Assembly: GCA_964016885.1 (NCBI GenBank)
Contig: OZ024753.1
Location: 1,860,001 to 1,924,000 of the forward strand
Direction: 5' to 3'
Source of the DNA: Eledone cirrhosa
Lineage: Eukaryota
Length of the DNA: 64,000 bases
The notes beneath the pieces are model-generated. The model was not told where the DNA came from. It saw only the letters and a program-made list of their open reading frames with translations, and ran no database searches. The translations under genes and the position numbers were made by a program. Below, piece by piece: positions 4,649-40,630 of the stretch (positions are counted from its first letter, which is position 1; every line of letters begins with the position of its first letter).

Positions 4649-7600
4649 GTATACATATTTATATATATATATATGTATGTACATACGTGATGCCCATGAA
4701 GGACGATAGCTGTATAAAAAAGTGCAGGGCAATAAAAATAGACGGTAGCCACGGAGTAGGCAGACCCAGAAAAACCTGGGACGACTTGATAAATTCCGAC
4801 CTCACACACTTACACCTCTCCAAGACAATGTCACTGGACCGAGATCTTTGGCGGTACTCAGTAATAGAGAAGACCCGCCTTACCTAAATACAAAGTAAAA
4901 CCTACTACAGTCAGTAGGCATCTCTAACAAAATACACCCCCGTCCCACTACCCCCACCCCATCCACACCACCCCTTTCAATGTAAAGTTATGTTGGTACC
5001 ACAACATCCAGGCCGAAACAAATGAGGTCGTGTAGGTGTCACAACAAAAAACACACAGTCCACGCTGTAATGTGGCCGTGTAGGTAACACGGTAAAAACC
5101 TCCCAGTCCACACTGTAAATGTGGTTGGTGTTAGGAAGGGCATCCAGCTGTAGAAAACCCGCCAGACAGTCCTATGCAAGCAAGACAACCACTCTTGCCT
5201 CAAGTGGGAAAACTCCCGTCCAAACCCATGCAAGCGTGGAATATGGACATTAAACGATGATGATGATGATGATATATGTGTGTATATATATATGTGTGTG
5301 TGTGTATATATATATATGTATATATATGCATGTATACATACACATGTATATACATACACATATATTTACACACACACATATATATATATACACACATACA
5401 CACACACACATTATATATAAGTGGTTCAGTAGATTAAATCCACTCCAGTGCATTGCTGGTACTTTATTTTATCAACCCCTCACCTCTCCTGTAAGGATAA
5501 ATGGCAAAGTTAATTTCAGTAGGATTTGAACTCAGAATGTAAAGGGCCGTAACTCTACGCCATACAACATCTTGTCCGGCGCTCTACCGATTGCTGCCAA
5601 AACACCGAACCTGCTTTTATTTTCTCGGTGAAGAGGAAAATATTATAAAAAGTAAATTTATAAATATATAAAAAAAGGGACCAAACTAGTTGGGTTTACT
5701 AAATACTAAAGAGGGAGAAATGGAGGTAAAACGGTGGTGATGGTGATGATGGTGGTGGTGGTGGTGGTGATGGTGGTGGTGGTGATGGTGGTGATGGTGG
5801 TGGTGGTGATGATGGTGATGGTGATGGTGGTGGTGGTGGTGGTGATGGTGGCGGTGGTGTTGGTGATGATGACGGTGGTGTTGGTGGTGGTGATGACGGT
5901 GTTGGTGGTGGTGATGATGGGTGTTGGTGGTGGTGATGATGGTGTTGGTGGTGGTGATGATGGTGGTGGTGGTGATGGTGGTGGTGGTGATGATGATGGT
6001 GGTGGTGGTGATGATGATGGTGGTGGTGGTGATGATGGTGGTGGTGGTGGTGGTGGTGGTGGTGGTGGTGGTGGTGGTCGTGGTGTTGGTGGTGGTGATG
6101 ATGGTGATGGTGGTGATGGTGGTGGTGATGATGATGATGGTGGTGGTGATGATGATGATGGTGATGATAATGATGATGATGGAGAAAGATAAGGAAAGAG
6201 AGAAGAGGTTAAGTTATGTTTTTTTATCTGAGAAAAAAATTTTAACTAAAAAAATACAAGAAAAAAAATATAAGAAAAAAGAAAGGGAATGAAAAATATA
6301 TATATATATATATATATATCTGTTTGTGGCTGATGGCTGAGAGAAAGGAGTACTCAATGCCGAAGTAGAGTTTTGATATTCATTTTATTAAGGCTAAATA
6401 TCGAGTCGTGTTACTCTGGAGTTTCACCTGTTAATCCCAGAGTTATCATATAAGAACTGTTCTTGACTGATGACCCCGTGATAAACTTCTTTAAGATAGT
6501 TTATTTACAATAATGTATAACCTTACCGGTTTCACAAGTTTCATGATTTTCAAAAGTTAAGAGAGATGGAGAGATGTGTCGCTATACCGACTCGAGACTT
6601 GTGAAACTGATAAAGTTATAAATTATTTTGTAAATAAACCTTCTTAAAGACTCCCACGAGGGATATATTAAAAAATTTTACTTTTGAATATATATATATA
6701 TGTGTGTATATATTTACACAGCTGTAGAAATGAGTTGCAACATCACTGATGCCAAGGTGTATCAGCCATTGCTTTTCCATTGAACAACAATGGTTGCATG
6801 GAGAGAGTAGGCTGGTATGCATGGGCAACTGCTGGTCTTCCACAAACAACCTTGCTTGGACTTGCACCTCACAATACAAACTAGTGTCTTTATTCTAATA
6901 CTGCAAATTTTCTCAAAGATCCACACACTGGTAAAAATACTATTAACGATTGAGCTAATAAACATGTTTTAAGATATTTACAACAAAATTGTTACAAGAT
7001 ATTAAGATTAAAGTCGACTTTACCATGATTTCTGTTGGTGTCCAGCGGGAGGTGCCCCAGTACATAGCCCATCCTTGATTGATGACAAATGTGAAGGCAC
7101 GGACAATTTCTGGAAACAAATAGAAAAAAGATTTTTTAAAATAAGTAAGAGAATGATGATTTATCTGAAAAATAAAATGAAATAATAGGTTAATTTTAAT
7201 CATTAAGTATGTTTTTTTTTATTTGTGACAGCCCATTGTGGTTAAGTGGATAAAGAATTGATATTTTTTTAATTTATTTATTCAAGGAGTACAGCACCAA
7301 TAAACCTCTTTCAGGGATCTACAAGACTGGTGGTAGGCACAAGCACGGCTGAATGGCTAAGAAGTTTACAATGATTAAGTCCAAGTTCAATCCCAATGCT
7401 TCACATACTGAGCAAGTATCATTTCTCAGAGCCTTGGGTCAACCTATGCCTTGTCAGTGAAATTGGATAGATGGAAACTATTCATAAGCCTTGTCACATG
7501 CTGTCATGCTGAATCTCACTAAGAATTATATTGAGGGTACACAGTCCTGTGGAATGTTAGGCTACCTACAAGTTAATTTTGTGAGCACTGAAACATCAAA

Positions 7601-31811: not shown

Positions 31812-34800
31812 TGTATTTATATATATATATATACACCACTTCATCAATACAGTTTTAAAATACAATTTTAACTAAATATTATCAGTAAATGCTTCAGAAT
31901 GTTCTCATCTAAACAATAGCTAGAAGGCAGATCATGTTAATATTGTAGGATGATAAAACTTTCTTCATCACTACACATTTTACTACACAAACATCTCACT
32001 AACACACACAGGCAATTCTATTAAATTCCATTAAATTTCACATCCATAAAATTCAGCTTAACACTTGGCTTAAGTGTATCAAATTAACTGATGAAAAGTT
32101 CCAGCAAGTTCCTGTAAGGGAAACAGTTTTAGGAAGACAATAAAAGTAAATAAAAATCTAAAAATAGAATCAAATACTAAATAAAGGGTGTTGTTGCTTT
32201 TGTTATTATTCTAGCTCTTGTTGTTGTTATAGCTCTTGTTACTGTTGTTTCCTTGTTAATCTTGTATCTGACGTTGTTGTTATTGCTGCTTGTTGTTGTG
32301 GATACTGTTGCTGCCTGTGTTGTTTTGGTTTATGCTGTTGTTGTTAATCACTGTTTTAATGGATGCATTTAAGCTGAGCTGACTTAAATTTATATCCAAT
32401 TAATCAAGAGAGAGGGAAAGGTAGAGGGGGGGGGGGCATGAGATGTAAAGATAAGAAATCGGGGTGGGTGGGGTCGGGAAAAAAGATAGAGGGAGAGAAT
32501 GTGTGTGAGACAAAGACCAAGAGTGAGAAATCTAGAAAGATGATAATGAGGATAAGATATTTTTAGTTAACTGTTGTAATTTAATCTTAAATACTTTGAA
32601 AAAGTAGTTTGTTAATTAATTAATTAATTATTTGATGTTGAATAAACAGTTTCCATCTAATATAGCAATATTAACCACATTATCAACATTAACAACATTA
32701 CCAACATTAATATTAACAACATTAACACTAACATTATCAACACTAACAACACTAACAACACTAACAACATTAACAACACTAACATTATCAATATTAACAT
32801 TAACAACACTAACATTAACAACACTAACAACATTAACAACACTAACATTATCAATATTAACATTAACAACATCAACATTATCAACACTAACATTATCAAC
32901 ATTAACATTATCAACATTAACAACATTAACATTATCAACACTAACAACACTAACATTATCAACATTAACATTATCAACATTAACAACATTAACATTATCA
33001 ACATTATCAACACTAACATTATCAACACTAACACTAACATTATCAACACTAACATTATCAACATTAACAGCATTAACATTAACAACATTATCAACACTAA
33101 CAACACTAACATTATCAACACTAACATTATCAACATTATCAACACTAACATTATCAACACTAACATTATCAACACTAACATTATCAACACTAACATTATC
33201 AACACTAACATTATCAACATTAACAGCATTAACATTAACAACACTAACAACACTAACATTATCAACATTAACATTATCAACATTAACAACACTAACATTA
33301 ACAACATTATCAACACTAACAACACTAACATTATCAACACTAACATTATCAACATTAACAACACTAACATTAACAACATTATCAACACTAACAACACTAA
33401 CATTATCAACACTAACATTATCAACATTATCAACACTAACATTATCAACATTAACAACACTAACATTATCAACATTAACAACACTAACAACACTAACATT
33501 ATCAACACTAACATTATCAACACTAACATTATCAACACTAACATTATCAACACTAACATTATCAACACTAACATTATCAACACTAACATTATCAACACTA
33601 ACATTATCAACACTAACATTATCAACACTAACATTATCAACACTAACATTATCAACACTAACATTATCAACACTAACATTATCAACATTATCAACACTAA
33701 CATTAACAACATTATCAACACTAACAACACTAACATTAACAACACTAACATTATCAACATTAACAACACTAACATTAACAACATTATCAACACTAACAAC
33801 ACTAACATTAACAACACTAACATTATCAACACTAACATTATCAACATTAACAACACTAACATTAACAACACTAACATTAACAACATTATCAACACTAACA
33901 TTAACAACATTATCAACACTAACAACACTAACATTATCAACACTAACATTATCAACATTATCAACACTAACATTATCAACATTATCAACACTAACATTAT
34001 CAACATTATCAACACTAACATTATCAACATTATCAACACTAACAACACTAACATTATCAACACTATCATTATCAACATTATCAACACTAACATTATCAAC
34101 ATTAACAACACTAACATTAACAACATTATCAACACTAACAACACTAACATTAACAACACTAACATTATCAACATTAACAACACTAACATTAACAACATTA
34201 TCAACATTAACAACACTAACATTAACATTATCAACATTAACAACACTAACATTAACAACATTATCAACACTAACAACACTAACATTAACAACACTAACAT
34301 TATCAACACTAACATTATCAACATTAACAACACTAACATTAACAACATTAACAACACTAACATTAACAACATTATCAACACTAACATTAACAACATTATC
34401 AACACTAACAACACTAACATTATCAACACTAACATTATCAACATTATCAACACTAACATTATCAACATTATCAACACTAACATTATCAACATTATCAACA
34501 CTAACATTATCAACATTAACAACACTAACATTAACAACATTATCAACACTAACAACACTAACATTATCAACACTAACATTATCAACATTATCAACACTAA
34601 CAACACTAACATTATCAACACTAACATTATCAACACTAACATTATCAACATTATCAACACTAACAACACTAACATTATCAACACTAACAACACTAACATT
34701 ATCAACATTAACAACACTAACAACACTAACATTATCAACATTAACATTATCAACATTAACATTATCAACATTAACAACACTAACATTATCAACATTAACA

Positions 34801-35315
34801 ACACTAACATTAACAACATCAACATTATCAACACTAACAACACTAACATTATCAACACTAACATTATCAACATTAACAACACTAACATTATCAACACTAA
34901 CACTAACATTATCAACATTAACAACACTAACAATACTAACAACACTAAATATATTTATCGATAAGGATAAATATATAGTTTCAGAAGATCCTGTTAAGGG
35001 TGAAAGCAGTGATTCTTTGCTTAAACTTTAATCTGTTATTTTAATAAATATATAAATATATATATATATCAATATTTATATATCAATATATATATATATT
35101 TATATATCAATATTTATATATATATATATCAATATTTATATCGGTAGAGGGCTGGACACCATGCCTTGCAGTAAAGAGTTACGGCCCTTGCCATTCTGAG
35201 TTCAAATCCCGCCGAGGTTAACTTTGCCTTTCATCCTTACGGGGTCGATAAAATAAAGTACCAGTAATACACTGGGATAATTGCTGGCCTTGTGCCAAAA
35301 GTAGAAACAAATATT

Positions 35316-37276: not shown

Positions 37277-39028
37277 CTGAAAAGAATAAAATATAAAATG
37301 AGCATTGGAAGATTTTAATTTAAATAGGAATCATTAAATATTTAGTCAAAAATATTGAAAAAGAAATGCTTTAAATGCTGGAAATGAGAGGAAGAGGAGG
37401 GAAAGGGCTAGGGTTATTAGGTAGCAAAAGAAAGAAAAAGGAAAAGCCAGAGGATGACAGACTCTACACCTAAGTTAGAGCAGTGTTTTGGCTGTGCCTC
37501 GCAGACAAAATGGCAAAGACATTTCAGCGGACAATGACCAGCGACATTGACAGCAACGACCACCCTACCGAGCAGGGCTCCTTCCTCTGATGGGCTGCTA
37601 TGTATATTAATGCTTTTATTATGTGTTTATGCATGTGTGAATATAGTCACACTCAGTTCACACAGAGAAATTCTAATACGTAACTTTATAATTAAATATA
37701 ATGAATATATCATAATTGCATGATCAGCAGCAACCAAGAGTAATCTTGGTAATAGATTAATTTCTTTAGTCAAAATACGGTGTAAGCTTATATTTCTACT
37801 TTATTTCAAACTTTGCCTGCTGTTTCAAAACAAACTTGCTATAACTAGATGCATCTATATAGAGGTGCAGACATGGCTATATATGTAGGCATGGCTTTAC
37901 AATCAAGTAGTTTTAGGTCCAGTCATACTGCATAGACCCTTAATTAAGTGTCTTCTAATATAGTCATGTCTTGTGATGGAGTTGTAAGGGTGCCATGCTG
38001 ACATACAGCAAATCTAGGGCACTTTAAACCATCTCTCTTGGTTTGTATACAACCAATTCCTTCCACAGGAGAGAGAATGAGACAAAGAAGAAGAATCAAC
38101 CCCAGTGTAAAGCTATTACTTTATTTTATTGACTGCGAAAGGTTGAAAAGCAAAGTTGATCTCAATGGGTTTTGAACTTATACCAACATAGAAAAGGCAT
38201 TAATATCACAATTTCCTGTTTTCTCTGCATTAAAAATGTCAGAAGCTGAAGTAAAAGTAATAAAAGATAATAGCATTAACACATTAACCAACTTTTCAGA
38301 GAAACGGAAGAATCCAGAATGTTCTTCAAACATTTAATAAAAATATATAAGCTTGTATAAACAAGAGATTCACTGCAGATGTTATCAAATATTTTTGGAG
38401 AATTGTCAAAGCTTCAAAAGCTTTTAGAAGATGGTATGATTTAATAAACTAAAATAGCTATAAATAAATAGAAAAGTACCAGTGACTTAGAAGTTTCATT
38501 TTAGTTATTTATTCTGGCTGCATTCTGTGATAGCAATAAAGGTTTTATATAGCATCATGTAGGTTAGGATAGTGGTAGGAGCATTAAAGAATCTATTTGT
38601 GATTGGTTGCCATATAGGTGTGTTTGTATTAATATGGTTGATAGTTCATTAGTCTAAATTAGGTGTCCAACCTCAAACAAATAAATTCTCTAACCTTCTA
38701 CCTTGACCTATATAAAGCTATGTAAGACCATTACAGTATTCTTAGAAAGTTCACCAGTATTGAGGGCTCATTCAGTTAATGTTTGAATGCTTTAAATACT
38801 ATGGTATTTTAAACACATTCTATCAGACAGATAGATAGATGGACAGAAGGATAGATAGATAGATATATCAATGCCACAAACTGATGTCAAGCTCTTGGTG
38901 AACCAAACTATTTATGAAGACGATTAATGGTCCGATGAGCAACAGAGCTATTTTATTTTACAAAATCTCTTAGTCAGCTTCTCTCATCTCTCTATATCTC
39001 TCTTCGTTTATCTATCTCTCATTATCAC

Positions 39029-39126: not shown

Positions 39127-39617
39127 GGAGTAAATCATCAGCTGTGAACAAATAACTTTTACTATGTAGTGAGTATTTTCTTCCCCTTTCGAACACCCAA
39201 ATATATATATATATATATATATAATATATATATATATGTATGTATCTATGATTGTATTATAAGAATCATAAATATAAAATGACTGACCGAATATGCACAT
39301 ATGTTTTTTTGCTCCCCTTTTTTCCCTTCACCTTTCCTCAGTCCTTCCTCTTCTCACTCATTTCTTTCTATTTATCTTCTATTTCTAGCTCTTCTGGTGA
39401 AGGAATAGTGTTCAAAATGTTAAGACTCGTTTCCTGCTATTTCAAGTGTTAAAGATATTTCTTCAATGTACTGTGTCATTTGCTTCGTTATTTCTGTTTA
39501 CCTCTTATATACCTATATATACACAGGAAAAAACATCAATATAAATGGAAGGTGTAATTATTTATATATATATATATTAAGTAAGAATATTTTCGAAACA
39601 GCGAGTAGGTTTGAAAT

Positions 39618-39900
39618 TATTAGAAATGTAAGCTATCGCCGTATTTTAACTAAAGAAATTAAAGAAATTATTTAGCCTGATAGTGGGGTTAAGAACCCTC
39701 AGAGAAATGGAAAAATGGGGTGATGTGTTGGTGTAAATGGTACCACAGTGGTCCGGATAACCAAAGATGTGGGTTCAACTCCCATGTACGTCAATACTCA
39801 TCTTTTTCCATTTCTCCGAGGGTTCTTAACCCCACTATCAGGCTAAATAATTTCTTTAATATCTTTAGTCAAAATACGGCGATAGCTTACATTTATAATA
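39618..39900. repeat. Foldback (~90-bp inverted arms) with a tRNA-like sequence at the apex
   Basis: 39624-39715 is the near-perfect reverse complement of 39803-39894; part of the arm recurs near 37762-37798. Confidence 0.85.
39722..39793 (+). pseudogene. tRNA-like (tRNA-derived) cloverleaf, probably non-functional
   Basis: A-box TGGTGTAAATGG, T-arm GTGGG-TTCAACT-CCCAT, anticodon arm TGGT-CCGGATA-ACCA, wobble-rich acceptor stem GATGTGT/GTACGTC; lacks U33 and purine 37. Confidence 0.6.
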
Positions 39901-40000
39901 ATATATATATATATATATATATAACGAAGGAAATGTGGTAAGGAACCAGGTGGACCATAACGCACCAAAGTACTCAATACTTAGGGTAGTAGAGTGGGTA

Positions 40001-40080
40001 ATAGGAACAAGTAAGACCCCGACGGCTGAGCTCAAACCGTCGAAACGGCTTGAGCTCAGCCGTCGGGGGTCTTACTTGTT

Positions 40081-40085
<5 letters not shown>
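40001..40085. repeat. Near-perfect ~40-bp hairpin with CGAA loop
   Basis: ataggaacaagtaagaccccgacggctgagctcaaaccgt-cgaa-acggcttgagctcagccgtcgggggtcttacttgttcctat. Confidence 0.9.
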
Positions 40086-40169: not shown

Positions 40170-40630
40170 TTATATTATTACAAAGGACAATTATAAATTT
40201 GTAAGTTCTTTTATAGCAAGGAGGAACTCCTTTGATAAAGATAATAGATGAAATGATTGAAACAGATATTTATGAACCAACAAACTTAAAACAATACTTA
40301 CTGTTCACATCCTACCATCTTAAACATACAAGAGCATGTATTCCTTTTACTTTAGTGAAACAATTGTTTCAAACCAGAAAAACATGCCTCTATTTTAGTA
40401 AAAAGTGGAATTTAAATAAACCCAAAAAATAAACCCAAAGAAAACCCACATCCGTTTATATCAACATACAATCCAAGGGATATTCTAATTATAATCATAT
40501 TCATAGGAATCTACCCATTTCATAATATGATGAAAAAAAAATGAAAAAACTGTTGGAGAATGAAGTAATTATAAAGAGCAAATGACAACCAGATTAATTG
40601 AAATAATTATTCACAACTGCAAAGATTCAC
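40170..40630 (+). mobile_element. Penelope-like element RT remnant (degenerate)
   Basis: ETDIY-PTNLKQYLLFTSYHLKHTRACIPFTL resembles the PLE RT C-terminal motif TDIYxKPTxxxQYLxFxSxHPxHxxxxIP; frameshifted. Confidence 0.75.

Follow-up and report, generated by a model that had tools for sequence, protein, structure and literature searches.

The long hairpin at positions 39,579–39,902 of the analysed window, a 64,000-nt stretch of the Eledone cirrhosa assembly GCA_964016885.1 (contig OZ024753.1, positions 1,860,001 to 1,924,000), is one insertion of a family whose mobile unit is a non-coding monomer of 260–271 nt. With fair confidence, we take this monomer to be non-autonomous and mobilized by Penelope-like elements (PLEs), its sense RNA adopting a tRNA fold and starting at that tRNA or just ahead of it; copying in trans by a PLE reverse transcriptase (RT)/GIY-YIG protein is likely. 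The foldback itself is an ordinary PLE head-to-head insertion of a tandem monomer, with the long stem arising at insertion. The proposal of the first-pass annotation, that the foldback is a mobile cassette and hence the unit of transposition, is refuted.

Its description of the locus, by contrast, was accurate: inverted arms do enclose a tRNA-shaped spacer. The arms (39616–39715 and 39803–39902) are 100 nt each, 96% complementary and separated by 87 nt, and the fold has a z-score of −24.7, with none of 100 shuffles equally stable. ARAGORN, run on the whole window, makes a single tRNA call (39721–39794, anticodon GGA), and the Rfam tRNA model matches 39722–39793 with 38.4 bits against a gathering score of 29, as had been anticipated for that interval. 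Rfam miRNA and psbJ matches on the element fall below their gathering scores and reflect its hairpins. The left end lies 37 nt beyond the limit originally drawn. Since this 37-nt tail extends the left end, the element is asymmetric, and its arms are not terminal inverted repeats.

Read from left to right, the insertion begins at a (TA)n target tract (39559–39578), followed on the minus strand by the one-sided PLE-type tail (39579–39615), which matches unit positions 1–37 and thus equals the first 37 nt of a next monomer, and by an inverted, 5′-truncated monomer copy consisting of the T5 trailer and the arm (39616–39715, from the inverted-repeat match); tail and inverted copy together (137 nt) are 96% identical to subfamily A, described below. 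On the plus strand lies a leader complementary to the trailer (39706–39721), and the sequence shared between the two holds the head-to-head junction. This is where the leader equals the reverse-complemented trailer, which is why the acceptor stem seems to prolong the long stem. The tRNA-like module (39722–39793), as read from ARAGORN, Rfam and the comparison of copies, has a short variable loop and a non-conserved anticodon loop, and contains an A box (about 39729–39739), a B box (about 39773–39781) and, at the foot of the T stem (39783–39786, tRNA nt 63–66), the main break-off point of the family's copies. It is followed by the trailer (39794–39812), which carries a run of five T (39803–39807) and is identical between subfamilies A and B at 20/20 positions, by an arm with short hairpins reaching the monomer's tail-less 3′ end (39813–39902), and by the right (TA)n tract (39903–39921).

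A GC-rich hairpin and a Penelope RT remnant had been noted beside the element. Both are present, but they are separate elements. The hairpin (39922–40082) belongs to a different, more abundant non-coding family inserted in (TA)n, which is likewise head-to-head and one-tailed (~80 nt), with arms that stop at a nearly fixed 5′ point; it is inserted in the TA tract beside the tRNA element. The remnant (40217–40432, plus strand) is a decayed PLE RT thumb of another family and has no Pfam match. Elsewhere in the window are an AT-rich minisatellite of 2.3 kb with short units and several open frames (32620–35031) and, on the minus strand near 7056, 18190, 19146 and 22765, exons whose motifs are those of a Kv-beta/aldo-keto-reductase-like gene.

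In the monomer the order is tail (1–37), spacer, 16-nt leader, tRNA (91–162), trailer with T5, and arm (to 271). There are thousands of copies, which stand alone, in tandem or as head-to-head pairs within (TA)n. Across the 3.0 Gb of host genome scanned, exact matches numbered 1,159 for a 29-nt T-arm pattern and 4,425 for a tail pattern, with none for either reversed-pattern control; the suspected repeated family is therefore real, and the arrangement is no one-off duplication. With the whole element as query there were 2,335 first-look candidates, and with the apex 1,041; 40 from each search were scored. Mapping of arm and apex at 60 loci, all of which came from searches with the hairpin element or the apex as query, revealed arms whose tRNA lies on one side or the other, head-to-head arrangements of two tRNAs, single copies, and units repeated directly with a period of ~270 nt. 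As to the suggested co-occurrence of arm and apex, the tRNA is found with arms, but in the unselected samples described next it may be on either arm or missing. Two further samples were not chosen by overall shape: the first 100 T-arm matches on contig C1, representing 82 places (T-arm sample), and the first 100 tail matches, representing 90 loci, 61 of them with an arm anchor (tail sample).

Two subfamilies were distinguished. Subfamily A is young, with a 271-nt unit and segments 96% identical to the majority sequence (only segments of at least 90% were counted); subfamily B is older and has a 260-nt unit. Still older forms include a decayed arm end plus tail of the same lineage within the window (37757–37840, plus strand), of which the arm fragment had already been spotted near 37765 and is indeed present at 37757–37798. 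As a lead to an ORF this fragment was rejected; it led to the older subfamilies instead. An array of ~25 subfamily B units spans 6.5 kb (G000:C1:131458911-131465829; L209, L164, L210), with a 1.5-unit inverted arm at its head and units that are 79–87% alike and show signs of higher-order repetition. Pieces of tRNA plus trailer are also present on contigs of four other organisms, for one of which 446 contigs were covered. Rare variants were common to segments of one insertion in 31/420 inverted and 11/136 tandem cases, against 137/21,496 between loci, such sharing being 11 times commoner for arms within one insertion than for random pairs. Copying of a single RNA or a single source would lead to such sharing, as might conversion or later duplication.

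The ends of the copies are those of a PLE. Partial tandems, an inverted 5′-truncated copy and a 30–40-bp tail at one end are given as marks of PLEs by Craig 2021 (PMC8557442), and the family has all three: pLTR-like partial tandems with units of 270 nt, an inverted 5′-truncated copy beside a forward copy with the 3′ ends outward, and a single tail. Only one tail was present at 15 of 16 two-armed loci in the T-arm sample (12 of 13 without three duplicated loci), and at none were there two. In the tail sample, 25 of 26 two-armed loci had one tail and none had two, the latter being the informative figure because selection of this sample guarantees one tail. The 3′ ends are bimodal, lying at the unit end (0) or at +33 to +39 nt, with an end at 46 nt where the tail runs by chance into TA. 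A TA repeat was found within 10 nt of the 3′ end in 79/86 and 72/78 cases in two samples; inside (TA)n, target-site duplications are unreadable. (TA)n is also the target of Naiads (Craig 2021, PMC8557442), and in vitro both strands of AT-rich DNA are nicked by a PLE protein, which initiates reverse transcription internally, at two sites between which the tail lies (Frangieh 2024, PMC11167929). The earlier guess that the element might be a PLE end was right insofar as the one-sided tail and (TA)n make it PLE-related, but the RT remnant has no part in it.

As for a protein partner, a coding family of the same genome with an RT plus GIY-YIG at the C terminus has a like ending, namely a 43–46-nt tail in (TA)n. 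Among the 100 tail-pattern matches listed, out of 4,425, no autonomous PLE with a matching 3′ end was found, and a 3′-end comparison with one coding PLE family gave no significant match. The PLE ORF abutting copy L057 was rejected as the partner, the 3′ end of its coding family being unrelated; the contact between that ORF and the copy looks like the scar of a deletion that came later. This coding family (L338:627-3896; L061–L090; 15,333 first-look candidates) is a young and very abundant PLE, the one with the like ending just mentioned, and has a long Asn-rich N-terminus, GIY-YIG at the C terminus after a CxxC finger, a 43–46-nt tail and, ~240 nt before its end, a minimal hammerhead-like core that was read by eye. 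In the tail region of the monomer, minimum-energy folds displayed no clear pair of twin start-site hairpins. Pfam did not recognize the PLE thumb and GIY-YIG pieces, and RVT_1 was weak (E 8.5e-5), below the cut-off.

The points at which copies break off are concentrated at two edges of the tRNA, in windows that were chosen after the data had been seen. Most head-to-head insertions stop before or within the tRNA, which also runs against the cassette idea, and in the tail sample a whole tRNA is found in only 15 of 87 arms. First, 39 of these 87 arms (31 of 60 loci) have their 5′ end at tRNA nt 61–68, 28 of them at nt 63–64, where 2.5 would be expected if ends were as dense as in the 71 nt downstream, which hold 22; one duplicated locus was dropped from this count, and arms of one locus are not independent. 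For an enzyme moving 3′ to 5′, this pile coincides with the first G-C pair of the T stem. The site has palindromic 4-mers, symmetric joints are common there (one, 39783/39787, is also seen in raw reads of other individuals), and microhomology may sharpen the pile. Solos and asymmetric joints likewise end at this site. A block at m1A58 followed by trimming would fit the pile as well; as for a read-through signature of m1A58, passing copies had no excess change at A58 (6/187).

Second, among 85 arms that span the T-arm (from 99 cores, minus upstream tandem units and three duplicated loci), 31 have their 5′ end at −9 to +8, against 5–7 expected. The mode of this second pile is −1/+1 (8/31), 2–9 leader bases are kept in 12/31, and no end falls at −10 to −32. 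About half of the T-arm-spanning arms run on upstream of the tRNA. Co-linear jumps (15/245) are scattered, with no cluster at the tRNA start. The piles at the tRNA edges lead us to infer that the template probably takes on a tRNA fold and probably has its start there.

The tRNA-like module is not a passenger by the tests that were run. Between subfamilies A and B, 70 of 72 positions are identical within the tRNA and 159 of 201 in all sequence outside it (P = 1e-4). Among copies the D-loop GG, the T loop, U8, A14 and A15-U48 are kept, and the anticodon loop drifts (position 33 is C/T/G, position 34 is G/C, and position 37 is T). Because positions 33 and 34 vary and 37 is T, the module is no decoding tRNA. 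A functional tRNA-Ser has a long variable arm, U33, a purine at 37 and a stable anticodon; a functional tRNA-Ser gene was accordingly rejected, in view of the short variable loop, T37 and the variability at 33 and 34. Five G-U pairs in the tRNA stems, and several between leader and trailer, are usable on the sense strand only. The leader-to-trailer fold scores −35.9/−40.1 for sense against −28.5/−22.8 for antisense, and leader changes between subfamilies are A/G opposite U. The module probably acts as a Pol III promoter or a processing signal, as the first-pass annotation had supposed from the sequence; its suggestion of a strong ADAR substrate gains no support from the genomic copies, 249 subfamily A segments of which carry no signature (A>G 66, T>C 71, P = 0.35).

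A search of the genome with Rfam for a parent tRNA returned 16 matches, none of them close: Thr and Ile tRNAs, heads of SINEs, and a family carried by a repeat. The tRNA-Thr genes form a cluster with pairs, 5–7 per 3 kb (L323, L325; G000:C1:243.65-243.68 Mb). A second tRNA-bearing repeat family (L324, L326–L334, e.g. G000:C5:99221441-99224513) has an intact tRNA of 53–72 bits with a varying anticodon (GGC, AGC, GAC, GTC, GGT), ~305 nt inside a fixed 5′ end that reads TC after A; Helitrons begin in the same way.

We propose the following course of events. In a tandem source copy, the A and B boxes would drive a Pol III start slightly upstream of the tRNA, and some transcripts would leak past the T5 run. 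A PLE protein would then nick (TA)n, and each DNA end would have its own internal site from which reverse transcription proceeds toward the RNA 5′ end. Most cDNAs would stall on entering the G-C-rich T stem; of those that pass it, one third would reach the RNA 5′ end and the remainder would enter the preceding unit via a multimeric, circular or terminally redundant template. That some templates are of this kind follows from the half of T-arm-spanning arms that go upstream of the tRNA. The two cDNAs would finally be joined by microhomology, which in the window copy would lie in the complementarity of leader and trailer and so leave the whole tRNA at the stem tip.

A T5 run right behind a tRNA should terminate Pol III transcripts before the arm; the Pol III model must therefore assume read-through, and this is where it is weakest. 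A Pol III start is preferred because a third of the ends in the tRNA-start pile keep leader bases. On balance, we give initiation by Pol III with leaky read-through an even chance, consider cutting by RNase P possible but rather doubtful, and regard a start set by neither as unlikely; initiation and cutting may both act on one transcript.

The strongest competitor, itself doubtful, makes the tRNA purely a processing signal that replaces the hammerhead, with RNase P cutting multimers at each +1 and no Pol III promoter needed. The product would be an RNA one unit long, either left linear or closed to a circle by ligation, and the clamp of leader and trailer would keep RNase Z off the trailer. 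Several observations agree with it: the modal 5′ end at −1/+1, the retention of the elbow nucleotides while the anticodon loop drifts, the pairing of the T5 run with a purine leader whose A/G changes preserve G-U pairs, and the rare variants common to tandem units of one insertion. The tRNA also stands ~180 nt before the first RT start, a placement reminiscent of the hammerhead-like core ~240 nt before the end of the coding family. A precise cut, however, would remove the 2–9 leader bases retained at 12/31 ends; neither a pile at nt 74 nor a jump cluster at +1 is present, and the A and B boxes are intact. Furthermore, RNase P leaves 5′-phosphate/3′-OH ends, which are not RtcB substrates.

It is improbable that the tRNA is passive cargo, i.e. 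a captured tRNA or SINE head in a non-autonomous PLE derivative that is transcribed by read-through from outside and whose fold only stalls the RT. In its favour, a T5 terminator stands behind the tRNA, the main pile is a stall-type site, and the leader looks like an old trailer in reverse complement, such that the clamp may be the fossil of an earlier foldback. Yet the tRNA is selectively conserved across subfamilies, and the second pile is on the 5′ side of the tRNA, where no new structure would confront an RT that travels 3′ to 5′.

It is very improbable that the family is a satellite derived from a SINE, or a usual tRNA SINE that depends on a LINE and has undergone 5′ inversions, although a body follows the tRNA-related head with its A and B boxes, one tandem array is long, and SINE-derived satellites have been described (PMC10702118). 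The first-pass annotation had already set the element apart from a normal SINE, rightly so: the family lacks its own simple-repeat tail and has 3′ ends fixed at two positions, it occurs in head-to-head pairs in which both outer ends are 3′ ends, and roughly half of the arms that span the T-arm include sequence upstream of the tRNA. Finally, the unit originally envisaged, a DNA cassette of foldback or MITE-like type whose inverted arms are terminal and whose tRNA is internal, is scarcely credible, since the full-length hairpin look-alikes at 30 loci were selected by the query, and in the unselected samples the centre varies, the tRNA is on either arm or missing, one end is tailed, tandems and solos are common, and there are no fixed symmetric TIRs around a constant core.

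Among known systems, animal non-LTR retrozymes and schistosome Sm-alpha are the closest. Retrozymes, which the family resembles in its way of working, have non-coding monomers of 170–400 nt, found singly, as dimers and in arrays and proposed to be non-autonomous PLE derivatives (Cervera and de la Pena 2020, PMC7229834; Li, Clavereau and Pollet 2026, 10.64898/2026.07.22.740005). The tandem non-coding monomer, here of 260–271 nt, is common to both, but where retrozymes as those accounts describe them have a type I hammerhead, a conserved tRNA-like module is found here. No exact CUGANGA occurs on either strand of subfamily A or B dimers, three one-mismatch hammerhead 7-mers in the dimers are without the conserved GAAA partner, and no Rfam ribozyme model matched, although Rfam also missed the minimal core in the control locus L071. 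With the PLEs Naiad, Neptune and the non-autonomous Chlamys elements such as MRC1 (PMC8557442), and with the mechanism of Poseidon PAc (Frangieh 2024, PMC11167929) as a further point of comparison, the family has in common 5′ truncation, partial tandems, the inverted copy, the tail and (TA)n; unlike them, it has no ORF and has an internal tRNA, and in the sections of these papers on which we draw, no tRNA in a pLTR is mentioned.

The combination of a tRNA with a tandem retro-repeat is itself already known, from Sm-alpha. The schistosome repeats Sm-alpha and Sj-alpha are described as tRNA-related, Pol III-transcribed and tandem, with only tandem copies able to propagate (PMC6765202, PMC2770079); they resemble our family in having a tRNA-related module in tandem repeats, its Pol III promoter being a predicted one here. 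In Sm-alpha, a hammerhead sets the RNA ends and the promoter is at the 3′ end of the cleaved monomer, whereas copies here end at the tRNA start and have no hammerhead; in the sections of those papers on which we draw, no PLE footprint is described. A hammerhead-free form with PLE ends and stop sites at the tRNA edges was not found in the literature searched. Octopod tRNA SINEs (tRNA-Core, tRNA-Deu; PMC8967140, PMC13282606) have a tRNA head, A/B boxes and high copy number in common with the family, but as those papers present them differ from its PLE-type rather than LINE-type ends, internal T5 and tandem permuted monomer. The family may nevertheless be hidden among the ‘unclassified SINE’ families of the same papers. 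It is also an annotation hazard, as ARAGORN calls its copies tRNA-Ser genes and they resemble MITEs or miRNA hairpins.

More tentatively, and with a good deal of doubt, we raise the possibility that the family is a ribozyme-free counterpart of retrozymes, in which the tRNA mimic stands in for the hammerhead and RNase P, with or without Pol III, yields a unit-length or circular RNA over which the PLE RT rolls. Young copies number in the thousands, which permits stop maps at base level, and a 270-nt substrate is easy to assay. The hammerhead was dispensable for PLE insertion in vitro (Frangieh 2024, PMC11167929), and the present family bears on the way in which the ends of PLE and retrozyme RNAs are made and on why a dispensable hammerhead is retained: a full PLE footprint with a tRNA and without a hammerhead, in a long-lived family, suggests that the RNA 5′ end may be fixed by any device whatever. 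If our reading is true, the family parasitizes PLEs in the manner of a SINE, the tRNA fold of the template being recorded in its genomic copies as RT stop sites, and it would carry SINE-like parasitism over from LINEs to PLEs.
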